This document shows, in pieces, positions 13,449-35,818 of a DNA stretch of 39,986 bases (within the stretch, counting starts at the first letter, position 1; the number at the start of each line of letters is the position of its first letter). The stretch covers positions 1 to 39,986 of the forward strand of contig JBBDXP010000009.1 of assembly GCA_040902285.1 (NCBI GenBank), in the 5' to 3' direction. The notes below the pieces were generated by a model. It made no database searches, was not told where the DNA came from, and saw nothing but the letters and a program-made list of their open reading frames with translations. Position numbers and translations under genes: made by a program. Source of the DNA: Candidatus Spechtbacterales bacterium (GTDB lineage Bacteria > Patescibacteriota > Minisyncoccia > Spechtbacterales > 2-12-FULL-38-22).

Positions 13449-14840
13449 ATGTCATTTTTTTCTGATTTTTCATACAACTGGCAGGTAATGCCGCCTTACA
13501 AGAAAAACCGAATTATTGTTGGCATAGTTGTGGCTATGGTATTGGCTGTTGTCGTTTTCGGAGTTTTGTCCGGATTTTTTAAACAAAAGGTAAGTGAATC
13601 TCAGCCCGTAACAATTGAGTTTTGGGATAGTTTTGACACCGGCGATGATTATCTTGAGGTATTCTCCAGATTTACCGATGAAAACCCAAATGTCTCAGTG
13701 CAATACAGAAAAATACCGCCCGAATTGTACCGACAGACCGTTACGGATGCATTGGCCGAAGGAGAAGGCCCTGACGTTTACGTTATACACAACACATGGC
13801 TTACTCAGGGGATAAGGCGTCTGGCTCCGATGAATGAATTTGTGGAAACAAATCCGGCGCTTATCTTGAATGAATTTCCCGATGTTGTTAGGTTTGATTT
13901 TACACGCGAGGGTTCAGCCGCTGTGCCTTTTATTTACGCACTGCCCATTTCCATAGATACGTTGGCGCTTTATTATAATGCAGATTATCTCAATAGCGAG
14001 GGCATCGTTGAGCCACCCGCGACGCTCGAACAGCTTGTCGAATATTCAAACCGCCTGCGAAAAATAGATGAAGCGGGCAACATACAGTTAGCCGGCTTAG
14101 CCGTGGGCGCTGCGGACAATGTTGACCATGCGACGGATATTCTATCTCTTTTGATGTTGCAGGGAGGGGCGCAAATGAATTCAACCTTCGATGAGTCGGT
14201 GACTTTTGACCAGCCGATTAAAGTAGGAGAGGACATTTTTTTCCCGGCCAGAGACGCAATGAACTTTTACACTTCTTTTTCGGACCCCGCCGCCGAAAAT
14301 TATACCTGGAGCCCCGCTTCGGAAAATTCTCTAGAGGCGTTTATAAAAGGAAAGGTGGCGATGATGATAAATTATTCGGATGCAGAAAATATTATACGTA
14401 GAGAGAATCCGGCTTTGAATTTTAAAGTCGCGCCGATGCCTCAGCCGGCCGGCCGTTTTGATAAAATAACTTATGCTAATTATTGGGGCCTTGCAGTGGC
14501 AAAAAACTCTAAAAACGCGCAATTGGCATGGGAACTTATCCACTATTTGACCCAGCCGGAGAATGCTACACTGTATTTGAGGGCTTCAGGGAGGCCTCCG
14601 GCGTTAAAATCGTTGATAGGCGAACCGATGTTTGACGAAGAGGGAGGGGAAATATTGGATCCTGATTATGACATGTTTTCCACCCAGATATTGACTGCCC
14701 GGTCGTGGATACAGCCGGATCCGGTCCGAGTGGATAGTATTCTCAAAAATGCTATAAACTATGTTCTAAACGGCGAAAAAAGCGCGGCTTTGGCAATAGG
14801 TGATGCCGTTCAACAGATAAATTCAATAATTAATTTTTAA
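13449..14840 (+). CDS. ABC transporter extracellular solute-binding protein (family 1, sugar-type), membrane anchored
   Basis: An N-terminal TM anchor is followed by an SBP_bac_1-like fold (e.g. ...VYVIHNTW..., ...YANYWGLAVAKNSKN...). Confidence 0.75.
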   Translation: MSFFSDFSYNWQVMPPYKKNRIIVGIVVAMVLAVVVFGVLSGFFKQKVSESQPVTIEFWDSFDTGDDYLEVFSRFTDENPNVSVQYRKIPPELYRQTVTDALAEGEGPDVYVIHNTWLTQGIRRLAPMNEFVETNPALILNEFPDVVRFDFTREGSAAVPFIYALPISIDTLALYYNADYLNSEGIVEPPATLEQLVEYSNRLRKIDEAGNIQLAGLAVGAADNVDHATDILSLLMLQGGAQMNSTFDESVTFDQPIKVGEDIFFPARDAMNFYTSFSDPAAENYTWSPASENSLEAFIKGKVAMMINYSDAENIIRRENPALNFKVAPMPQPAGRFDKITYANYWGLAVAKNSKNAQLAWELIHYLTQPENATLYLRASGRPPALKSLIGEPMFDEEGGEILDPDYDMFSTQILTARSWIQPDPVRVDSILKNAINYVLNGEKSAALAIGDAVQQINSIINF

Positions 14841-26169: not shown

Positions 26170-26244
26170 AAATTGACTTAAGCTACATTTTATAGCATCA
26201 TATCCTTAGAAAATTGTTCATTGACAAAAGAAAGGAGGTCAAGA

Positions 26245-27615
26245 ATGCCGCCGAAGAATTCCTTAAATTCTCAGCCGGAAGATTTTACGATTAAGCTTGC
26301 CGACGGCCTTCCTCCAAGATGGCAGAAATTTGAGGAAGAGATTAAAGGTATAGTTTTTGACCAGGAACGCCCGATACGAAAGGTAACACGCACTCTTATG
26401 GCCTTGGAAGCGGGACTGCATGATCCGCGCAGGCCTCCAGACCCATTTATATTTGCCGGTCCGCCCGGTTCAGGCAAGACATATCTTGCAGAAATCATAG
26501 CCAAGGTTTGGCTAGGCGAACCTAAGCGAGAAGGCGAGATTGGTCCTCTTATCGTTTTGTCGGGAGAAAACTTCGGCCGTGAGCATGAGGGCTCTACCCT
26601 AAAGGGCGCCCCGCCCAGCTATATCGGGTTTGGACAAAAAACTCCTTTGGAAGATACAGGTGTTTTTGACAAGATGAGGCGTTTGGAGAAATTGTGGGAA
26701 ATTGCTTTTGATTGGGAATATGAAATGGAGAAAAAAGGATTCCGTTCGTTGTCGCCGTCCGCGAGAGATGAGTTTTTTGAACGCGCCAAGAGAATGATGT
26801 ATAAAAAAGCCAAAAGTATGGGGCCGTATCGATCGGTATTGCTGGTTGATGAATTTGAAAAAATGCACATTTCGGTCCAAAAACAATTTCTTGGCATATT
26901 GTCCAGCGGCGGCTTAAAACTGCATTCCGGCAAGTTTGTTGATTTTAGGGGCACTCTTATAATATTTACCACCAACATAGGTTCCGAAGAAATCAACAAA
27001 CTGCTTGAAAACAGGGGAATCGGCTTTGTTTCCACAACTCTTAGCGGAAAATCTCAGGATCAGATAAACCAGCGCATCTATAAGACGACACGCTCAAGAA
27101 TAGAAAAAGATATAGATCCGGCACTCTTTAGCCGCATAGGACATGACGGCATAGTGGTATTCCACGCGCTTCCGAGAGAAACTCTTTCCAAGATACTGGA
27201 TTATGAGATTACCCGCGTGCAGGCAAAACTTTTGAGTGAGGATCTTGGCCCCGTTAGAATTTATGTTTCCGAAGAAGCCAAAGAATTGATATTGAATGGC
27301 GCTGATACTCCGCGCGAGGGAGCCCGGCAGATAGGGCGCCTTGTGACCAAATACATATCTGATCCGCTTGCGCGGGTAATAGAGTCAGATGAACTTAGAG
27401 GCGGGGATGAAGTGTTAATTGCCGTCGAAGGTTCTAAAATACAGCTTAGGCGGCTTCCAAGGCCTACTAGCCCGAAATTGCCACCCCTCCGGCGTCCGGC
27501 AAGAACAGGCGATATGGACACCTTGGAAAAAGAAATGTTTGATGATTTGACAAAAGAATTCAAAAATTTGCTCAAAGAAAAATACCCCATTGTAGCACCC
27601 GAAGAAGAAGATTAA
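26245..27615 (+). CDS. Single-module Clp/Hsp100 D2-type AAA+ ATPase
   Basis: An AAGGAGG RBS precedes the ATG. Walker A GPPGSGKT, KGAPPSYIGFG (matching the IGAPPGYVGY block of ClpA/B/C D2), Walker B LLVDEFEKMH, FVDFRGTLIIFTTNIGS, the VVFHALPRETLSKI sensor region and a GAR sensor-2 are all present. There is no N-domain, no D1 module and no ClpX zinc finger. Confidence 0.75.
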   Translation: MPPKNSLNSQPEDFTIKLADGLPPRWQKFEEEIKGIVFDQERPIRKVTRTLMALEAGLHDPRRPPDPFIFAGPPGSGKTYLAEIIAKVWLGEPKREGEIGPLIVLSGENFGREHEGSTLKGAPPSYIGFGQKTPLEDTGVFDKMRRLEKLWEIAFDWEYEMEKKGFRSLSPSARDEFFERAKRMMYKKAKSMGPYRSVLLVDEFEKMHISVQKQFLGILSSGGLKLHSGKFVDFRGTLIIFTTNIGSEEINKLLENRGIGFVSTTLSGKSQDQINQRIYKTTRSRIEKDIDPALFSRIGHDGIVVFHALPRETLSKILDYEITRVQAKLLSEDLGPVRIYVSEEAKELILNGADTPREGARQIGRLVTKYISDPLARVIESDELRGGDEVLIAVEGSKIQLRRLPRPTSPKLPPLRRPARTGDMDTLEKEMFDDLTKEFKNLLKEKYPIVAPEEED

Positions 27616-27908: not shown

Positions 27909-27946
27909 TAACCTAGATTGATAGTACCTTGAAAAAGGAGGACGAA

Positions 27947-29842
27947 GTGGCCGAAGAACCTCAAATACAAAATACTCAAAAGAATTCTAAAGAATTCGAT
28001 GTACTTATCGCAATATCCACAGAACTGCGGGAAAAAGCGAACGGTATGTTAAGTGAGGATTTTGTCCGTCATATAGACGATATAACAGAAAAAGCGGATG
28101 AACTTGAGACCGCGCGAAAACTGCAGGCGCAGGAGGCGTCGAGGGATATCCAGCAAAATAAGCTGGCCTATCTTAATAAAATAAGAGAACTTAGCATAGA
28201 ACTAAATCAACTTAGCCGAATGCTGAGCGCTCTTAAGGAACAGCCCCCGCTGATGTCTGCCAAATTTGTTAGATTTGTCCGTTATCATGAAATAGAAGAA
28301 TACGGCAAGAAGGTAAAGATTCCAGTTGTGGATATTGTAAATTCCAGCGGTTCCAACGCGCGCGTTTTTGTGCATCCGGAGCTGGATGTTTCCAATGTTA
28401 AGTATGGACAGCGCGTTCTTGTAAGCGCGGGCAACATGACTATAATGGAAATTTTGCAAGAATTCGAGGTTATAGGACAAGAAGCATATGTCGAGGCTCT
28501 CTTGGAACCCGATTTTGAAGGTAAGCGTGTTTTGGTATCGGAAGGCCAGCTGGACATGAAAATAGTGGCGCATCTGTCCTCTTCCGTGGAAGATAAAGAA
28601 ATGGAAGAAGGCACTAGGGTTCTTGTAGATACAAAGACATCTTTGGTCGTGGAAGTGCTTCCCGAGCATGAGAGCCGCCGTTACATTGTGGGCGAAATCC
28701 CAAATGTCACTTTTTCTGATATCGGAGGCCTGGACGGCATTATCGCGAGGATAGACGAGCATGTTATATGGCCTATAATCTATCCCGATGTGTGGGAAAA
28801 AATAGGATTGGATTCTCCAAAAGGATTTGTGCTTGCCGGCCCGCCGGGTGTGGGCAAAACCATGATTGCCAAGGCGTTGGTAAACTATCTTAATGAAAAA
28901 CTCGAGGAAGTTCATGGCAAACCCGTACAGGGCCGTTTCTTCCACATTGCCGGACCTGAAATTCAAAACAAATATGTGGGCGAGACCGAACGCATTATGC
29001 GCGAGATATTTGCCCAGGCGGCAAAGAATGCTTCTCCGCTAAGCCCCTCCTTGGTATTTTTTGACGAAGCGGACGCGCTTTTCCCAAGACGCGGTTCGGG
29101 AGTCTCCTCCGATGTTGAAAAGACGAATGTTACCCAATTTACAGCCCTTATGGACGGCCTTGAGACCAGGAGCAACATTATAGTTGTTTTGGCGACAAAC
29201 CGCCCCGAACTTTTGGATCCCGCGGTCATACGGCCCGGGCGCTCGGACTTCACTGTGGATGTTCCGCGGCCCAACGAAGAAGCCGCCAAAGCCATTTTTG
29301 CCAAATACATAAGGCCCGAATGGGGGCAGATAAATCCTAAATACGATCAGGAGGTTTATATTCCAAAAGACAAAAAGGGCAATACGCGCGTTGATGACTC
29401 CGGAAGTGATATAAAACTTTACTTCGGACACAAGCCGCAAGAGGTTGTGGATTATCTTATCGCTAAAGCAACAGCGCGCATGTACGATCTGGACAATCCA
29501 AGAAACAAATTTATCAAACTCAAGTTTAGGGATTATTCGGAAAAAACTCTCCGTTACGGCGATTTTGCCTCCGGCGCTATGATTAAAAATATAGTGGATC
29601 GTGCCAAGAGATTTTCCGTTCATGATCATAAGGTTGGAGGTGAAGAACTCGGGATAACTCTCGTACACCTGTACAAAGCCATTGAAGAGGTCTTTTCTGA
29701 GCTTAGGGGTCCTTCCGGAGCCGGCGATTCCAGCACCTGGCTTGAAATAGAAGGCCATGTCCGCGGAAATAACGTTACGGGAATAGAATTTCTATCCAGA
29801 GATGCGGATGATTCTGACGATGATGAAGAGCCCATTTTATAA
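27947..29842 (+). CDS. ARC/Mpa-like (proteasome-associated-ATPase family) AAA ATPase
   Basis: An N-terminal coiled-coil (…LSIELNQLSRMLSALKEQ…) is followed by a tandem OB-fold inter-domain (…NARVFVHPELDVSNVKYGQRVLVSAGNMTIMEIL…). The single AAA module has Walker A GPPGVGKT, KYVGETERIMREIF, and Walker B/arginine finger VVLATNRPELLDPAVIRPGR. The C-terminus …DDEEPIL has no GQYL/HbYX docking motif. Confidence 0.8.
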   Translation: MAEEPQIQNTQKNSKEFDVLIAISTELREKANGMLSEDFVRHIDDITEKADELETARKLQAQEASRDIQQNKLAYLNKIRELSIELNQLSRMLSALKEQPPLMSAKFVRFVRYHEIEEYGKKVKIPVVDIVNSSGSNARVFVHPELDVSNVKYGQRVLVSAGNMTIMEILQEFEVIGQEAYVEALLEPDFEGKRVLVSEGQLDMKIVAHLSSSVEDKEMEEGTRVLVDTKTSLVVEVLPEHESRRYIVGEIPNVTFSDIGGLDGIIARIDEHVIWPIIYPDVWEKIGLDSPKGFVLAGPPGVGKTMIAKALVNYLNEKLEEVHGKPVQGRFFHIAGPEIQNKYVGETERIMREIFAQAAKNASPLSPSLVFFDEADALFPRRGSGVSSDVEKTNVTQFTALMDGLETRSNIIVVLATNRPELLDPAVIRPGRSDFTVDVPRPNEEAAKAIFAKYIRPEWGQINPKYDQEVYIPKDKKGNTRVDDSGSDIKLYFGHKPQEVVDYLIAKATARMYDLDNPRNKFIKLKFRDYSEKTLRYGDFASGAMIKNIVDRAKRFSVHDHKVGGEELGITLVHLYKAIEEVFSELRGPSGAGDSSTWLEIEGHVRGNNVTGIEFLSRDADDSDDDEEPIL

Positions 29843-29859
29843 AATCGCACATTCTTTTG

Positions 29860-29887
29860 ACCCCCGACTGCAAAGCGGGGGTTTTTA
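29860..29887 (+). terminator. Rho-independent terminator
   Basis: acccccg-actgcaaa-gcgggggt followed by ttttatttt. Confidence 0.75.
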
Positions 29888-29898
29888 TTTTAATAAAA

Positions 29899-29927
29899 TT
29901 GACACACGACCGCCAAACGACTATACT
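29899..29927 (+). promoter_or_regulatory. Sigma70-type promoter TTGACA-17-TATACT upstream of the dop-like gene
   Basis: ttgaca cacgaccgccaaacgac tatact. The 5'UTR attagtaccttaaaaaggagg shares the agtacctt(g/a)aaaaaggagg motif with the ARC and Lon-like leaders. Confidence 0.6.
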
Positions 29928-29962: not shown

Positions 29963-31579
29963 ATGCCTGACAAGCCGCGCAAGATAATAATTGGCGCTGA
30001 AACCGAATATGGAATATTTGCGACAGAAAACGGCCAAATACTTGATAATGAGGCCTTAGGACTTGTGAGAGAGGCCGAAAATGTAACCAAAGATTTTTTC
30101 CTTCGCCCGCTTGAGGGCATAGAAGATACCGAAGAACATGAAAATCTTGATTCTATGACTGATGAGGATTTTTTGCGCCAACCGGAAAGTTATCAAAGTT
30201 CCGGAGAAAGGCAGAGGCGCGGCCTTACCGGTTTTGTTCTCTCAAACGGATGCAGATTCTATGTTGATATGGGTCATCCGGAGTATTCAATTCCCGAAAC
30301 AACAAATCCCATGGATGCTCTTGTCGCGCAAAAAGCGGGAGACAGGATAGTTGAGCTTTGCAGAAGATTATTTGAGGAAAGATTAAAGAACGAAAATAGG
30401 AATATTTCGATTCGTTTGGATAAAAACAATAGCGACGGTAAAGGGAACAGCTATGCCGCGCACGAAAATTATTCTCTTACCCCCGAAACCTTTACGGAAA
30501 TAACTAATCGTTATGGGTCAAGAGAGTTGGAAGATATTGTGTTGAATTTTTTCACCACGCGCCAGATAGTGACAGGGGCCGGAAAGGTTGGATACGAGAC
30601 AGGAAGACCCGTTCCATACCAAATAAGCCAGCGTGCGGATTTTATTGAAAAGGAAAAAAGCTTAAACACGGTCGAAAAGAGGGGGATAATAAATTTGCGG
30701 GACCATTCCTATGCCGGATACGATGATGTCCGCAGATTGCATGTTATATGCGGAGACGGCAACATGTCCGAATTGTCTCTGTATCTTAAATTCGGCACAA
30801 CAGCGCTTATTTTAATGATGCTTGAAAGCGGATTTATACAGAGCGAAGGAAGTTCTGTTTTGATTCGCATGCAAAATCCCGTCCGCTCGTATAAAAATGT
30901 ATCAAGAGACCTTTCCCTGGGCCACAAGATATTTTTTGAGGACGGTTCTAAAAGGACCGCTTTAGCCATACAGGAGGAATTTTATTCTCTGGCCAAAAAA
31001 TTTACCGATGGAAACGATATTGATCCTATATGGCGCGATGTCGCAGACAAGTGGGAAAAGGTTTTGCACGGTCTTGCCGGGGAAAGAAATTCTGATGAAT
31101 GGGCCGGCAATCTGGACTGGGTTAAAAAAGAAACCATACTCAAACGGCATCAGGAGAAAAAAGGAGTTTCTCCGCTTCATCACACATGCCGCGCCGTGGA
31201 TCTTCAGTACCACAACATAAATCCCGAAAAAAGCATTTATTGGCGCCTGGCTGAAAGAGGAGACATACTTTTGTTTGCCACCAAAGCCGATATAGAGAGG
31301 GCTATTAATGAGCCACCTTCGGACACAAGGGCGTGGTTCAGAGGGCAAACCGTTAAACAGTTTAGAAATGTTCTGGACGGTATCGGCTGGCAATATATTA
31401 AATTTGCCGATAAATACATTTTTATGGGCAATCCATTTTCTGGTTCAAAAGAAGCAGCAGAGAGTATTTTTGCGGGGGTTTCTTCTCCGGAAGAATTTAT
31501 TGAAAGATTGTCGAAAGCAATTGAACGGAAGGAGAGTGGATTGGAGGGCTTTAGTGTCGGAGAAGGGTGGTTGATATAA
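29963..31579 (+). CDS. dop: Pup-ligase-family protein, Dop-like (depupylase/deamidase-type)
   Basis: The N-terminal IIIGAETEYGIF strand (Dop-type E-Y-G) is followed by a ~45-aa insertion before the conserved RFYVDMGHPEYS block, consistent with a Dop loop. The carboxylate-amine-ligase fold is retained at 538 aa. The Dop versus PafA call is an inference. Confidence 0.7.
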   Translation: MPDKPRKIIIGAETEYGIFATENGQILDNEALGLVREAENVTKDFFLRPLEGIEDTEEHENLDSMTDEDFLRQPESYQSSGERQRRGLTGFVLSNGCRFYVDMGHPEYSIPETTNPMDALVAQKAGDRIVELCRRLFEERLKNENRNISIRLDKNNSDGKGNSYAAHENYSLTPETFTEITNRYGSRELEDIVLNFFTTRQIVTGAGKVGYETGRPVPYQISQRADFIEKEKSLNTVEKRGIINLRDHSYAGYDDVRRLHVICGDGNMSELSLYLKFGTTALILMMLESGFIQSEGSSVLIRMQNPVRSYKNVSRDLSLGHKIFFEDGSKRTALAIQEEFYSLAKKFTDGNDIDPIWRDVADKWEKVLHGLAGERNSDEWAGNLDWVKKETILKRHQEKKGVSPLHHTCRAVDLQYHNINPEKSIYWRLAERGDILLFATKADIERAINEPPSDTRAWFRGQTVKQFRNVLDGIGWQYIKFADKYIFMGNPFSGSKEAAESIFAGVSSPEEFIERLSKAIERKESGLEGFSVGEGWLI

Positions 31580-32976
31580 TGAAAGACAGAGCCGTTGGTA
31601 TAGAAAATGAATTTGGCGTAATGCTTAAGGATGATTTTGGCAATTTTAGTTCTCAAGAGAACGAAATGCTGGCCATTAACAGCATTCCTCGTGAAAATTT
31701 GCCTCAAGGGGGTGGAATGTCCAACGGACGTTTCTGGCTTGCCAACGGAGGCAGTGTATACATAGACCTGGGCCATCCGGAATATGCTTCTCCCGAATGT
31801 CTCAGGTTGCGTGATCTGATTGCTGTAAGCCGCGCGGGAGAGAGGATTTGTTCCCGTATGTTCCATTACGCTGTTAGTAATGGAAGGTATTGGCAGCTTT
31901 TTAAGAATAATTTGGAAATTAGCGCCGAAGGAGGAGAAGGAAATTCGTTCGGATGTCATGAAAATTATCTCATTCACGGATATAAGCCGGAAGACGAGGT
32001 CATGCATACGCATCTTCTTCCCTTTCTGATAACTCGGCAGATATTGGACGGAGCGGGATGGTGGGCTTCGGACGGCAGATTTTCATTTTCTCAAAGAGCG
32101 TTGATTTTGGGCACCGTGGCGGCAATGGGTACCACGGAGGGGATAAGCCGTCCCATCATAAATCTTAGAGACGAGCCCCATATACAGAATAGGGAAGGAA
32201 TGAGCAGGTTGCATCTCATTTTGGGCGATGCCAACATGCTGGACTGGGCCTTGTATCTTAAATTCGGTACCACCTCCCTTGTACTGGCCATGCTTGAAGA
32301 AGGCCATATATTCAGGGATACGTGCCAAAATCCCATTGAAGCCATGCGCAGAGTGGCGTTTGATAAGACCGCGCGGAAACGGCTATTGAAATTTAGCGGG
32401 CGCGGGAAAATGAGCGCGCTAGAAGTGCAGGAATTTTACCTTGCCAAAGCCGAAAAATACGTCTCTATAACTGATTTTGCAAGCTACGAAAGCAGATTGG
32501 AAGCGCTCCAAACCGTGTGCATGTGGCGCGAGGCCTTAAATGCGATAAAAAATCGCGATACCGCATGGATGCTCGGACGGCTTGATTGGGCAACAAAGCT
32601 GTATCTTGGAAACAAAGAGTGGTCGAACAAAAAAAATTCGGGCGCTAGTGAAATGGACATCAAAAAACGCGTTGATATTCTTTATCACGCCGTGACCGAC
32701 ACAAGATTGCGCGACCGAATATATGCCAAGTGGCCGAACAGGCAGCTGGTCGGCGGACAGGAAATTGAGTATATGATAAATAATCCCCCACTGGACACCC
32801 GCGCGAGAATAAGGGCGTTGTTTATTGATCTCTGCTCAAAAAAACAATTCGGCACGGATAAGGACATATCTGTGAATTGGTCCAAAATAGTATATAGAGG
32901 CAAGGCGTTTAACTTGGGATACCCTTTAGACAAGGATAATCTCGAGGTTGAGAAACTTATCAGAAATCTCTTGTAA
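31579..32976 (+). CDS. pafA: Pup-ligase-family protein, PafA-like
   Basis: VGIENEFGVM (PafA-type E-F-G) with no loop insertion; SVYIDLGHPEYASPE; 466 aa. Its ATG overlaps the dop-like stop as TAATG, which suggests translational coupling. The track ORF begins at an upstream GTG (31567). Confidence 0.7.
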   Translation: MKDRAVGIENEFGVMLKDDFGNFSSQENEMLAINSIPRENLPQGGGMSNGRFWLANGGSVYIDLGHPEYASPECLRLRDLIAVSRAGERICSRMFHYAVSNGRYWQLFKNNLEISAEGGEGNSFGCHENYLIHGYKPEDEVMHTHLLPFLITRQILDGAGWWASDGRFSFSQRALILGTVAAMGTTEGISRPIINLRDEPHIQNREGMSRLHLILGDANMLDWALYLKFGTTSLVLAMLEEGHIFRDTCQNPIEAMRRVAFDKTARKRLLKFSGRGKMSALEVQEFYLAKAEKYVSITDFASYESRLEALQTVCMWREALNAIKNRDTAWMLGRLDWATKLYLGNKEWSNKKNSGASEMDIKKRVDILYHAVTDTRLRDRIYAKWPNRQLVGGQEIEYMINNPPLDTRARIRALFIDLCSKKQFGTDKDISVNWSKIVYRGKAFNLGYPLDKDNLEVEKLIRNLL

Positions 32977-33035
32977 AATTGTAAAATAATCTGTAATAAT
33001 AAGAGCAAATGCAACCGGAAAGGAGGATTGCCGTG

Positions 33036-33230
33036 CCGCCGCAAGAGCAGATAAGGCCTAATCGCAAAAGGGACGATTCCAGCGAAGACCAGGAATATGT
33101 CCGCAAAGATAAAGATGATGAAGAAGATTCCTCCGAAGAGGAGCTAGACGATGAGGAGCTGAACATCGACGATCTTTTGGAAGAATCAGAAGAACTTACA
33201 AAGAAGTATAAGCAGAAAGGCGGAGAGTAA
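33036..33230 (+). CDS. pup: Prokaryotic ubiquitin-like protein Pup homolog, C-terminal GGE
   Basis: A GAAAGGAGG RBS lies 6 nt before GTG 33036. The 65-aa product is acidic and low-complexity, ending …DDLLEESEELTKKYKQKGGE. This resembles the actinobacterial Pup C-terminus (…DDLLDEIDDVLE…YVQKGGQ/E) that binds Mpa and is ligated by PafA. The track ORF (33009) adds 9 N-terminal residues from an ATG that has no RBS. Confidence 0.75.
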   Translation, partial: PPQEQIRPNRKRDDSSEDQEYVRKDKDDEEDSSEEELDDEELNIDDLLEESEELTKKYKQKGGE

Positions 33231-33241
33231 GCAGTACTTTT

Positions 33242-33266
33242 AGCCCCGTTTTAACGGGGCTTTTTT
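33242..33266 (+). terminator. Rho-independent terminator
   Basis: agccccg-tttta-acggggc followed by tttttt. Confidence 0.75.
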
Positions 33267-33274
33267 ATTGGGGG

Positions 33275-33303
33275 TTGACTCTCATGCCCTAGATATCTAT
33301 AGT
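33275..33303 (+). promoter_or_regulatory. Sigma70-type promoter TTGACT-17-TATAGT (second copy of the module at 27877-27947)
   Basis: ggggttgactctcatgccctagatatctatagttaacctagattgatagtaccttgaaaaaggagg. AGGAGG lies 7 nt before GTG 33344. Confidence 0.65.
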
Positions 33304-33343: not shown

Positions 33344-35818
33344 GTGCCTGCCGAAGAAAGAGACGGTATACGGGAGTTAAATCCTGAAGAGCTTTGCCGG
33401 AAATGGCAGCCCGAAGAGTTTAATTCCGAAGTTGAGCCCGATACGGGATTTTCCAACGGAGTTTGGCTGGGTATCAGCCAAGATCGCTTGTTCAAAGCGC
33501 TTGATTTCGGTTTGAGCAGAGACGCACCGGACCATCATATATTTGTTTCTGGAATAACGGGCCCAACGGTTTTGGAGGCCCTTGAGAAGTTTGTTCTGGA
33601 TTTTGAAAACAAGAACACTGGAGAACTGTCCCAGTTGCGGGATTGGTGCTATGTATATAATTTTGACAATCCCCGCAACCCCGTTGCGATTCCTCTGCCC
33701 GCGGGCAGAGGAAAGGTACTGCGCTTTAAGATGAAAAAGAATCTGTCTCGTTTGCAGGATGCCATACCAAATGCTCTCAACAGCGAGAATGTCGCGCAGG
33801 AACATTTGCGGGCGACCAGTGAATTCAATGATTGGTTTTCGGCCGCGCAGGAGAGCACAAGGAAAAGAGCTGCCGAAAACCAAGAGGCGATAGTGGAGTT
33901 CGGTGATTCCGGCTTTGACGTCAACATCATTCCGTGGCGCTATAAGAGTTTGAACGAAGAAGAAAGGGAAGAGCTGGGCAGAACCCTCGCTTCCAAAGAA
34001 AAACAGCGCGACAGGAACACGATAAGCAAATACATGCCCGAGATTATAGCAATACGGAATGAATTTCTCAAAAGAGATGCAAAGTTGCGCGAGGAATTAA
34101 ACCGAATAAATCAAAGTGCCATAAAAGAAGCCATACAAGGGGTGTTTAGAAGTTTGCGCGGAAAACTCAGCGAAAACAGCAGAAGTACCGCTCTTACAAG
34201 ATATATAGACAGCGTTGAGAAATTTGCCACAGAAAATTACCCAATTTTTCTTCAAGGCAAAAATAAAACGGTACCTAGAGTGGCCAAACAGGAGCCTGAC
34301 ATCTTTATTCCCTGGGAAGTAAATGTGTTTGTCGATAACAGCAACGCCAAAGGCCCGCCCGTTGTCATAGAGCTTGATCCGACATTCGAAAACCTTGTCG
34401 GAAGGATTGAAAAAGTGGTAATGGCGGGTGGAATGGTTTCAACGGACCATACCAGAATAGCAGCCGGTTCGCTCGCGCAGGCAAACGGCGGATATCTGCT
34501 TTTGAATATTCGCGATGTTCTTGTGCGGCCGGGAGCTTACGAAGCTCTTAAGAACGCTGTAAAGAATAAAACTCTGGAAATTTCCGAACTCATGTCCGCT
34601 ATGGGTTATGGTTCAATGTCTTCTCTGGATCCGACACCCATTCCGCTTAATCTTAAGCTTGTAGTTACGGGCATTCGAGGTTTGTGGGAGTATCTTTCAC
34701 ATGCGGATCCGGAATTTTCAAGCATATTTAAGATAAAGGCGGATGTAAATCCGGATGTTGATCGCAGTCCCGACGAGGCATCGGCGTGGGCCCGGTGGAT
34801 GACTAAGCAGTATTCCGAACACGGGCTTCTGCCGCTTGAAAACGATGCCATGGGGCGGATAATTGATTACGCTTCGCGTGTTGCCGGTTCCAAAAAGCGT
34901 ATAGCCACTAATTTTGGGCTTTTGCAGGATTTGATGAGCGAATCTTCTTATGTTGCCAAAAAAGAAGGTGCTGAAAGAATAAGCGCCCAACATGTGCGTA
35001 GTGCCATAGCGGACAGAAAATTCCGACTCAGTTTGTATCAGGAACGCCGTCTTAGGAGCATACAAGAAAGCCACACGCTGATAGATGTAGAGGGTGGCGC
35101 GGTTGGTCAAATTAACGGCTTAGTTATTTTTGGGGGCAGGACTGAAGATGCTTGGTTTGGCGGTCCTAGCCGTATAACGGCGCAGGTTTCTATGGGAAAG
35201 CCGGGTTTTATCAATATTCAGCGAGAATCCAAAATGTCCGGACCTTATCTGGATATGGCCGACGCCATAGTCAACCGTTATCTTATGGGTACATATGCTA
35301 AGAAGTATCCCATTGCTTTACAGATAAGCATCGCCTTTGAGCAATCATATGGCGGGGTGGACGGAGACAGTGCCTCTCTCGCGCAGTTGTATGCCACGCT
35401 TTCGGCTGTGGCCGAAGTGCCAATACGCCAGGATGTTGCCATAACGGGTTCTCTTAACCAAAGAGGGGCCGTGCAGGTCATTGGCGGAGTTAACGATAAG
35501 ATAGAGGGATTTTTTGACGCATGCCTTGCCAAAGGCGGGCTTTCGGGAACCCAGGGAGTTATTATTCCCGAAGGCAATGTTTCTGATTTGATGCTTCGCG
35601 AAGATGTGGTTGAAGCTGTCCAAAATGGCAGGTTCCATGTTTGGGCAGTAAGCCATGTGAGCGGAGGTATCAAGATTCTACTGGGTATGCCCGCAGGAGA
35701 GCGTGATAACGAAGGCAAATTCCCCGAAGGTACATTTAACGCGATTGTGGATGAAAAACTGCAAAGTTATGCCCGCAACGCGAAAAACTTCTTTAAAGAT
35801 GAAGAAGCGGAAAAATAA
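33344..35818 (+). CDS. Lon-like (S16 family) serine protease with a degenerate AAA-like domain lacking Walker A (LonC-like)
   Basis: The C-terminal protease domain has DGDSASLAQLYATLSAV (compare the Lon PKDGPSAG catalytic Ser block) and ITGSLNQRGAVQVIGGVNDKIEGF (compare the Lon TGEITLRGRVLPIGGLKEK catalytic Lys block). No GxxxxGK[ST] motif occurs anywhere in the 824 aa. Confidence 0.7.
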   Translation: MPAEERDGIRELNPEELCRKWQPEEFNSEVEPDTGFSNGVWLGISQDRLFKALDFGLSRDAPDHHIFVSGITGPTVLEALEKFVLDFENKNTGELSQLRDWCYVYNFDNPRNPVAIPLPAGRGKVLRFKMKKNLSRLQDAIPNALNSENVAQEHLRATSEFNDWFSAAQESTRKRAAENQEAIVEFGDSGFDVNIIPWRYKSLNEEEREELGRTLASKEKQRDRNTISKYMPEIIAIRNEFLKRDAKLREELNRINQSAIKEAIQGVFRSLRGKLSENSRSTALTRYIDSVEKFATENYPIFLQGKNKTVPRVAKQEPDIFIPWEVNVFVDNSNAKGPPVVIELDPTFENLVGRIEKVVMAGGMVSTDHTRIAAGSLAQANGGYLLLNIRDVLVRPGAYEALKNAVKNKTLEISELMSAMGYGSMSSLDPTPIPLNLKLVVTGIRGLWEYLSHADPEFSSIFKIKADVNPDVDRSPDEASAWARWMTKQYSEHGLLPLENDAMGRIIDYASRVAGSKKRIATNFGLLQDLMSESSYVAKKEGAERISAQHVRSAIADRKFRLSLYQERRLRSIQESHTLIDVEGGAVGQINGLVIFGGRTEDAWFGGPSRITAQVSMGKPGFINIQRESKMSGPYLDMADAIVNRYLMGTYAKKYPIALQISIAFEQSYGGVDGDSASLAQLYATLSAVAEVPIRQDVAITGSLNQRGAVQVIGGVNDKIEGFFDACLAKGGLSGTQGVIIPEGNVSDLMLREDVVEAVQNGRFHVWAVSHVSGGIKILLGMPAGERDNEGKFPEGTFNAIVDEKLQSYARNAKNFFKDEEAEK

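Follow-up and report, generated by a model that had tools for sequence, protein, structure and literature searches.

Pupylation is commonly viewed as an actinobacterial route to the proteasome, with Mpa, Dop, Pup, PrcB, PrcA and PafA as the parts list in Mycobacterium and dop-pup-prcBA-pafA as the gene order. The well-studied exception is Corynebacterium, in which the system has no protease partner: C. glutamicum has ARC, Pup, PafA and Dop and no 20S proteasome (PMC12288473). Here we describe a locus with the same tagging parts list in a metagenome-assembled genome (MAG) of Candidatus Spechtbacterales, a member of the Candidate Phyla Radiation (CPR). It lies on contig JBBDXP010000009.1 (assembly GCA_040902285.1), and the window analysed is this whole stretch of 39,986 nucleotides (nt); unless stated otherwise, all of its features are given on the forward strand. 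Two adjacent Pup-ligase-family open reading frames, ORF1 and ORF2, stand between an arc gene and a pup gene, and a gene for a LonC-like protease follows. We read the whole, with a probability of about 0.78, as a pupylation system with a dop-pafA-pup operon, in which ORF1 would be the depupylase and ORF2 the ligase, with ARC unfolding the tagged proteins and the LonC-like protein degrading them.

Compared with the actinobacterial system, the window has in common an ARC/Mpa AAA+ protein with OB domains, a loop-bearing Dop, a loop-less PafA, a Pup ending in Y-x-Q-K-G-G-[EQ], and the invariant columns of the Dop/PafA alignment. It differs in its order, arc-dop-pafA-pup with dop and pafA overlapping, in having no prcBA, in an ARC without the GQYL tail, in its CPR host, and in enzymes that score below the equivalog cut-offs, the Dop being without Trp47 and ORF2 without the alpha-loop motif of PafA. 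The likeness to C. glutamicum is that of a Pup system without proteasome core genes. In Corynebacterium, however, no protease replaces prcBA and ARC is a disassembly machine, whereas a LonC-like gene occupies the slot in the window and, counting its relatives, in nine loci. The Pup of C. glutamicum has Glu at its C-terminus, as does that of the window; with such a Pup, Dop acts solely as a depupylase in C. glutamicum and would likewise do so here.

Proteasome-less Pup loci had been described by Iyer et al. 2008 in Plesiocystis and Rhodopirellula only, tied to membrane proteins (PMC2588565), and Hecht et al. 2020 reported sporadic occurrences outside Actinobacteria and Nitrospirae, none of them in CPR (PMC7947786). 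Our literature search yielded no account of pupylation in CPR bacteria or of a link between Pup and Lon. Some candidate phyla are reportedly listed in the UBact paper. Taken alone, the predicted enzyme pair adds new divergent members to the known Dop and PafA families; the combination of gene order, host and protease swap is, as predicted from the sequence, a previously undescribed version of the Pup system.

The predicted dop-pafA-pup operon

Both ORF1 (29963-31579; 538 residues; MEX2145019.1; predicted depupylase) and ORF2 (31579-32976; 465 residues; MEX2145020.1; predicted Pup ligase) match Pup_ligase PF03136, with 397.5 and 302.5 bits respectively. This confirms the two Pup-ligase-family paralogs proposed in a previous sequence-only reading of this DNA, as well as the length that it gave for the first; the second had been counted as 466 residues, and the actual length from the ATG at 31579 to 32976 is 465. 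The two proteins are 32% identical over 431 residues. The 1-nt overlap was also as described: the TAA of ORF1 (31577-31579) and the ATG of ORF2 (31579-31581) share one A in a TAATG stop/start junction (31577-31581).

ORF1 begins with ATG and has an AAGGAGG Shine-Dalgarno (SD) sequence upstream, and an SD-like AAGGGTGG is found within the 3' end of ORF1 (31563-31570), 8 nt 5' of the ORF2 ATG. This ATG is supported as the start because the N-terminus MKDRA[VM]GIENE is kept in a 68%-identical relative; an alternative GTG start at 31567 was rejected, since the homologues begin at MKDRA. It is plausible that the TAATG and the internal SD couple the translation of the two opposing enzymes. Among ten CPR loci the dop/pafA junction is overlapping in six and spans at most 20 nt in two more, so that tight coupling is common, though not universal.

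The pup gene (33033-33230) begins 56 nt 3' of ORF2 with a GTG start and encodes an acidic protein of 65 residues with the C-terminus ...DDLLEESEELTKKYKQKGGE. Because there is one promoter-like site 5' of dop (29899-29927; TTGACA-17 nt-TATACT, intergenic, with 11/12 matches, a consensus match only) and one terminator-like hairpin 3' of pup (33242-33261; an 8-bp stem with 6 GC pairs, then a T-run), ORF1, ORF2 and pup are predicted to be one dop-pafA-pup operon of a pupylation system. Matches to domain and family profiles gave the gene order arc-dop-pafA-pup, as had been claimed, and the contrast with the actinobacterial order holds as well: the two Pup-ligase genes are ~1.7-2.5 kb apart in 40/43 classical loci, the spacing expected for dop-pup-prcBA-pafA (the 43 being the actinobacterial/Nitrospira-type loci with enough flank). 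The window proteins are identical to NCBI MEX2145018, MEX2145019, MEX2145020 and MEX2145022 of the Candidatus Spechtbacterales MAG, where ORF1 and ORF2 are both labelled 'PafA2 family protein' and the Lon-like protease 'ATP-binding protein'.

Assignment of the two enzymes

The ExE motif, the catalytic Asp, HPE, HEN and arginines are invariant columns in alignments of 60 and 62 sequences; these are shared by ORF1 and ORF2 by definition, since both are within the alignments (ORF2 is the first sequence of the 62-sequence alignment, A3). Beyond this common core, ORF1 is unambiguously predicted to be Dop-type. Dop (TIGR03688) was its best-scoring NCBIfam model, with 369.6 bits against 284.9 for PafA, and core-only hidden Markov models (HMMs) preferred Dop by 131 bits (461 versus 330). 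Its database neighbours were long CPR proteins first and then classical Dop of ~494 residues, and its AlphaFold2 (AF2) model had a predicted local distance difference test score (pLDDT) of 94.

By definition, the Dop-loop lies before strand beta2 and is a conserved run of 40-65 residues that every Dop has and every PafA lacks (PMC8599861). Our alignment placed an insertion at this position in ORF1, N-terminal to strand beta2 at approximately residues 41-86 (30083-30220), and none in ORF2, in agreement with the sequence-only reading, which had seen a Dop-type loop in the first paralog only. It had estimated ~45 residues; the position stood and the size was close, the stretch between the ExE motif and the catalytic Asp being ~35 residues longer than in ORF2 and ~41 longer than in C. 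glutamicum PafA. Within the ORF1 loop, EGIEDTEEHENLD aligns with VKWDYEEESPLRD of classical Dop around a common core D-x-E-E (WDYEEE in the classical proteins), and AF2 predicted short helices in it (pLDDT 78-91). At the positions that distinguish Dop from PafA according to Hecht et al. 2020, Dop has V-D-H-A-HPEY-S-x-P, Phe208 and Lys220 (PMC7947786). ORF1 has V-D-M-G-HPEY-S-I-P, Phe208 and Lys220, keeping the Val, Ser, Pro, Phe and Lys, and HPEY-S with Phe208 is found in 43/43 members of the ORF1 family. The alpha-loop of ORF1 is a partial match to the Dop type.

Some features of ORF1 speak against a standard Dop. Its score is below the NCBIfam Dop equivalog cut-off (369.6 versus 492.3 bits), Met-Gly replaces His-Ala after the catalytic Asp, a pair that is not conserved in the ORF1 family, and the Dop-loop Trp47, which in the Acidothermus enzyme stacks on Arg90 (PMC8599861), is replaced, the position being variable across the CPR family. 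We infer that ORF1 is probably an enzyme of the depupylase/deamidase type. The GGQ termini of two related Pups (L001 and L088) imply that a deamidase acts in these lineages, in keeping with a Dop role of the ORF1 family.

ORF2 is best read as a fast-evolving PafA orthologue. It scored 265 bits with the NCBIfam PafA model (TIGR03686) versus 226 with Dop, it has no Dop loop in the alignment, and its database neighbours were short CPR proteins and then a full-length classical 'Pup--protein ligase' of 452 residues. The pLDDT of its AF2 model was 93. Near the catalytic Asp, PafA reads L-D-V-G-S-HPEY-A, with one extra residue (PMC7947786). ORF2 reads I-D-L-G-HPEY-A-S-P, with HPEY-A as in PafA; its family resembles PafA in the same way, 40/43 members having HPEY-A and 43/43 an aromatic residue at position 7. 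The N-terminal motifs noted in the sequence-only reading are present (GAETEYG in ORF1, GIENEFG in ORF2), but its use of E-F-G as a mark of PafA failed, since classical PafA also has E-Y-G and the difference is non-discriminating. The PafA-specific C-terminal helix that it proposed as a further discriminator did not serve either, as both AF2 models end in helices.

A number of results weigh against the PafA assignment of ORF2. The score of 265 bits is below the PafA equivalog cut-off of 551.3 bits, the core-only HMMs put ORF2 nearly equidistant (PafA 333 and Dop 324 bits, a margin of 9 bits), and among solved structures it matched Acidothermus Dop with 198.6 bits and C. glutamicum PafA with 151 bits. 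The extra residue of PafA is present in 37/43 ORF2-family members and not in ORF2 itself. The PafA alpha-loop motif H-x-W-E-G-x-S-S-A-T-T-R-S, which forms a helix in a loop treated as the main switch between ligase and hydrolase (PMC7947786), is absent from ORF2, which reads LILGTVAAMGTTEGIS here, two residues longer and sharing only TT and a Ser; in the ORF2 family the alpha-loop fits neither Dop nor PafA. AF2 showed no alpha-loop helix in ORF2, the region being strand-loop-strand (pLDDT 74) as in ORF1, and we dropped this secondary structure as a discriminator of ligase and hydrolase since both models have it. A Foldseek comparison of the ORF2 model with PDB structures was likewise set aside because it gave no separation, with template-modelling (TM) scores of 0.77-0.82 for Dop (excluding a partial 9cku chain, TM 0.72) and 0.77-0.81 for PafA.

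Phylogenies of both proteins with characterised Dop and PafA were then used for the assignment. The first tree contained 141 sequences and was made by neighbour-joining (NJ) on 422 columns with at least 80% occupancy, the Dop loop being removed, with 200 bootstraps. The ORF1 and ORF2 families contributed 43 sequences each; classical Dop was represented by 28, the crystallised proteins of Acidothermus and M. tuberculosis among them, and classical PafA by 27, among them that of C. glutamicum. The ORF1 family and classical Dop were separated from classical PafA and the ORF2 family by a split with 100% bootstrap, and the four groups were each monophyletic (98.5-100%). The tree thus showed neither the two paralogs in one clade, as after a recent duplication without specialisation, nor a swapped assignment; a recent duplication was rejected on the 32% identity and the position of the two proteins on opposite sides of the split. 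Long-branch attraction or CPR composition does not account for the split, because either would unite the two CPR groups and the opposite was seen.

This tree is also compatible with an alternative in which the ORF2 family represents a third branch, older than the divergence of Dop and PafA, perhaps with a ligase activity acquired independently. The trees were inferred by NJ under a simple distance correction rather than by maximum likelihood, an unrooted split of four groups at 100% could be produced by the affinity of ORF1 to Dop alone, and the midpoint root of the tree, which is without an outgroup, falls on the long stem of the ORF2 family (length 0.31); the near-equal scores of the ORF2 core with the Dop and PafA profiles and the missing alpha-loop motif point the same way. 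However, a third branch would need two duplications and two losses versus one duplication, and the ORF2 family has the HPEY-A, the extra residue and the position-7 aromatic of PafA. In addition, when second trees also took in the Dop-like and PafA-like copies from two CPR loci linked to a 20S proteasome (L092 and L052), the PafA-like ones broke the ORF2 stem, and that of L092 was nearest to classical PafA (distance 1.12, versus 1.22 to Dop).

The second trees also had the same branching order in both halves: classical proteins, then 20S-linked CPR proteins, then LonC-linked CPR proteins, with 99-100% support at all but two nodes. In the Dop subtree the CPR proteins form the sister clade (100%) of classical Dop; within it the 20S-linked pair diverges first, and a nested clade (100%) comprises the LonC-linked proteins. 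In the PafA half the ORF2 family groups with PafA (99%), L092 and L052 again branch first, and the LonC-linked clade has 100%. The weak nodes concern which of the two basal 20S-linked Dop-likes branches first (57%) and whether the CPR PafA-like family as a whole is monophyletic (64%). This mirrored order suggests a single old duplication and, together with the HPEY-A, upholds the orthology of ORF2 with PafA. We conclude that the third branch is unlikely, and that ORF1 and ORF2, as the trees indicate, go back to the old duplication that also gave rise to classical Dop and PafA, with the PafA copy having evolved much faster than the Dop copy.

Perhaps, on the other hand, the roles are swapped or shared, with the loop-bearing ORF1 as the ligase or as both enzymes and ORF2 as a regulator or a second isopeptidase. 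Locus L088 has an ORF1-type gene only beside pup and lonC, ORF1 lacks Trp47 and the classical His-Ala, seven tandem ORF2-type paralogues stand without Pup, ARC or Dop in L002, and few changes interconvert the two activities (Hecht et al., PMC7947786). Nevertheless, ORF1 retains the signature residues of Dop and its 131-bit preference for the Dop profile, the presence of the loop counters ligase activity in a mutagenesis study, and, with the L088 contig ending 0.8 kb upstream, a PafA-type gene may lie beyond it or elsewhere in that genome. We consider such an exchange very improbable, and retain ORF1 as the predicted depupylase and ORF2 as the predicted ligase.

The family holds some further variation. 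The widely conserved R-D-E-P-H reads R-D-H-S-Y in ORF1 (residues 248-250, window 30704-30712) and its closest relatives, and R-D-Y-S-Y in protein P0123; ORF2 retains R-D-E-P-H. The array in L002 (6545-17664; GCA_030697755.1, JAUYPB010000046.1) consists of seven tandem Pup_ligase paralogues on the same strand, of 465-489 residues and of the loop-less ORF2 type, with the RDEPH motif degenerate in some copies. DnaJ and DnaK genes are adjacent to it, and within 10 kb there is no ARC, Dop-type, Lon-like or recognisable Pup gene. In L001 (1277-5831) two PafA-type genes (469 and 464 residues) flank the Dop-type gene, and the Pup ends in GGQ.

Pup, ARC and the protease slot

Pup has been defined as a small (50-90 residues) acidic protein ending in G-[EQ] and encoded beside a Pup-ligase gene (Iyer et al. 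2008, PMC2588565), and the window Pup, ending in ...YKQKGGE, agrees with this in size, acidity, C-terminus and neighbour. Its match to TIGR03687 was 16.8 bits, below the cut-off of 41.45, and a profile made from 40 actinobacterial-type Pups gave 25.7 bits. Since it already ends in GGE, no deamidation would be needed. Small ORFs ending in G-E or G-Q are found 3' of the ligase gene in all LonC-linked loci but L091 (...KKAE), with KQKGGE, RQKGGQ, KQRGGQ and QTGGE among the C-termini.

The ARC/Mpa-like AAA+ unfoldase (27929-29842; 637 residues; Pfam AAA and proteasomal-ATPase OB domains) scored 368.9 bits with NCBIfam pup_AAA, below the cut-off of 504.75. The GQYL (HbYX-type) motif for docking to the 20S is absent from its C-terminus, which has the tail ...DDSDDDEEPIL in its place. 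Acidic tails were found in 8/8 LonC-linked loci with a readable C-terminus; in two 20S-linked CPR loci the tails are ...RIRRPYA and ...KRRGRSAT, and classical ARC has GQYL, GHYF or GHYL in 10/11 loci read. The C-termini of ARC therefore vary together with the neighbouring protease.

The LonC-like gene (33344-35818; 824 residues; MEX2145022.1; Pfam LonC_helical, AAA_32, LonB_AAA-LID and Lon_C) follows pup. The arrangement arc-dop-(pafA)-pup-lonC was found in nine distinct CPR loci (the window, L004/L005, L001, L006, L086, L087, L088, L089 and L091), and the linkage is kept down to ~35% protein identity. In two further CPR loci, L052 (Terrybacteria) and L092, prcB-prcA follows pafA; the flanks of L092 are those of the window (a GT2 glycosyltransferase gene, then RecG on the other strand), and prcB-prcA stands where the window has pup-lonC. 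Searches with tblastn using CPR prcB/prcA found neither gene in the 40 kb of the window nor in the flanks of any LonC-linked locus, and no proteasome domain was found among the window ORFs scanned. The sequence-only reading had mentioned neither this absence nor the Lon-like protease that follows. A profile search of genome contigs with the ORF1-family alignment returned mostly Actinobacteria, with L006 and L052 as the only CPR loci. In L090 (12334-14023) an rve-family transposase stands at the Lon-like position after arc-dop-pafA-pup, and the called ORF of 118 residues contains a normal Pup (...HYKQKGGE) starting from an internal Met.

The nearest solved relative of the window protease is the LonC of Meiothermus taiwanensis (4FWD), with 268 bits over residues 316-782. 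The window protein is like it in having a helical insertion, a degenerate AAA-like domain, a lid and a Lon Ser-Lys domain, and is longer (824 versus 732 residues). The Ser676/Lys719 dyad is present, and is invariant in 88 aligned members of the LonC family. The P-loop is lost (SGITGPTV, no GK[ST]), and the protein has the marks of LonC: the helical insertion, the degenerate AAA-like domain without Walker A, and the Ser-Lys domain. A P-loop remnant GxxGxG[KR] was found in 71/80 members not linked to Pup versus 0/8 Pup-linked ones in the first alignment, and in 0/10 once two database members of the same clade were added. Unlike Meiothermus LonC, with which it shares the family and not the clade, the window protease has lost this remnant and belongs to a separate clade found beside Pup genes only; the Pup-linked proteins form this exclusive clade with 100% bootstrap among 207 sequences. 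One extra member, P0245, has a context that is unreadable, its contig beginning 167 nt 5' of the gene. MtaLonC is ATP-independent.

A bolder reading is that a single event in one CPR lineage put an ATPase-dead LonC-like protease in the place of the 20S proteasome of the Pup system, and that the ARC hexamer, by way of its new acidic tail, passes unfolded pupylated proteins straight to the Lon-like hexamer. We put this forward tentatively, at a little short of even odds; if true, the pair would constitute a hybrid protease dependent on Pup, and no earlier Pup degradation pathway would have dispensed with a proteasome. Several observations run counter to it. The absence of prcBA covers contigs and not whole genomes, so that a 20S may be encoded elsewhere. 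Pup-ligase or ARC genes were found near 0/80 other LonC-like metagenomic loci (43 of them with at least 3.5 kb of upstream sequence); a general link of LonC-likes to Pup was thereby rejected, the link being specific to one clade. The lonC gene has its own promoter-like site (33275-33303; TTGACT-17 nt-TATAGT, intergenic, 10/12 matches) and terminator, and hence constitutes a transcription unit by itself. Synteny extends to the unrelated neighbours GT2 and RecG, which implies that shared ancestry explains part of the conservation, and in L088 a Dop-type gene alone stands beside pup and lonC.

Such observations, above all the separate transcription unit, the syntenic GT2 and RecG without an obvious functional link, and the 0/80, could also be explained if pupylation here leads to no degradation, as in Corynebacterium, with ARC only unfolding or disassembling its substrates and lonC a neighbour by descent; proteasome-free pupylation is established in C. 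glutamicum (PMC12288473). Against this stand the position of lonC, exactly that of prcBA in L092 and L052, its linkage in nine loci down to ~35% identity, the loss of the P-loop remnant in the linked clade alone, and the ARC C-termini that change along with the neighbouring protease. We regard a non-degradative system as a serious alternative with roughly one chance in three.

The remaining features concern the surroundings. Directly 5' of arc lies a gene for a single-ring ClpB-D2-like AAA+ protein (26221-27615; 464 residues; Pfam AAA_2 and ClpB_D2-small), without N-domain or first ring, which has its own promoter-like site and terminator and is shared with the 70%-identical relatives L004/L005 alone; it may have an accessory role, outside the conserved core. 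A hairpin with a T-run (ACCCCCG...CGGGGGT TTTTATTTT) was read by eye 3' of arc (29860-29890); its 9-nt loop left it unlisted by the terminator scanner. The promoter-like and terminator-like sites delimit four units: the ClpB-D2-like gene, arc, ORF1-ORF2-pup, and lonC. Downstream of lonC are the GT2 glycosyltransferase and then RecG on the opposite strand, and the remainder of the window holds housekeeping genes including those for L19, FtsH, GyrA and tRNA synthetases.

In its adjacent arc, dop and pafA genes the window resembles the non-actinobacterial Pup/UBact-type systems with a proteasome (in Nitrospirae and others, and in the CPR loci L052 and L092). The enzymes of L052 and L092 fall in the same CPR Dop-like and PafA-like clades, basal to the clade of the window. 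Unlike the window, these two loci have prcB-prcA, and the modifier after prcA ends in ...REQSGE or ...FTQPEGE, not ...QKGGE. The candidate modifier gene 3' of prcA (L052 14723-14935; L092 ~14650-14800) is more UBact-like than Pup-like. A triad of PrkA, DUF444 (YhbH) and SpoVR genes stands beside the Pup locus in L052 (15168-19821), L091 (1353-6339) and L092 (2994-7714), on either side of it and in both LonC-linked and 20S-linked versions. In L088 (822-5562) a Dop-type gene of 597 residues is followed by a Pup gene of 63 residues (...FKQRGGQ) and then by the LonC-like gene, with no PafA-type gene between.

Proposed mechanism and meaning

In the reading that we prefer, ORF2 would use ATP to phosphorylate the gamma-carboxylate of the C-terminal glutamate of Pup, and would join the phosphorylated Pup-GGE to lysines of target proteins. 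ORF1 would cleave the isopeptide bond, recycling Pup and rescuing substrates. Going by gene context only, Pup would be bound by the ARC protein of the gene immediately upstream, which would unfold the tagged proteins and pass the unfolded chain to the neighbouring LonC-like Ser-Lys protease, itself ATPase-dead, for degradation. The handover from ARC to the LonC-like protein is the least-supported step of this mechanism.

What the locus holds is a complete predicted tagging set in a very small-genome organism, with a Lon-family protease at the place of the proteasome and three accompanying changes: an altered ARC tail, a lost protease P-loop and a faster-evolving ligase. The divergent pair, a Dop without Trp47 and a PafA without the alpha-loop motif, may serve to test which residues decide between ligase and hydrolase. 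If the link to the protease is functional, the Pup tag and the ARC unfoldase would be compatible with another protease, and the ATP-independent proteases of the LonC type would gain a candidate partner and a route for substrate delivery. The locus would then be a natural experiment on an unfoldase switching its proteolytic partner.

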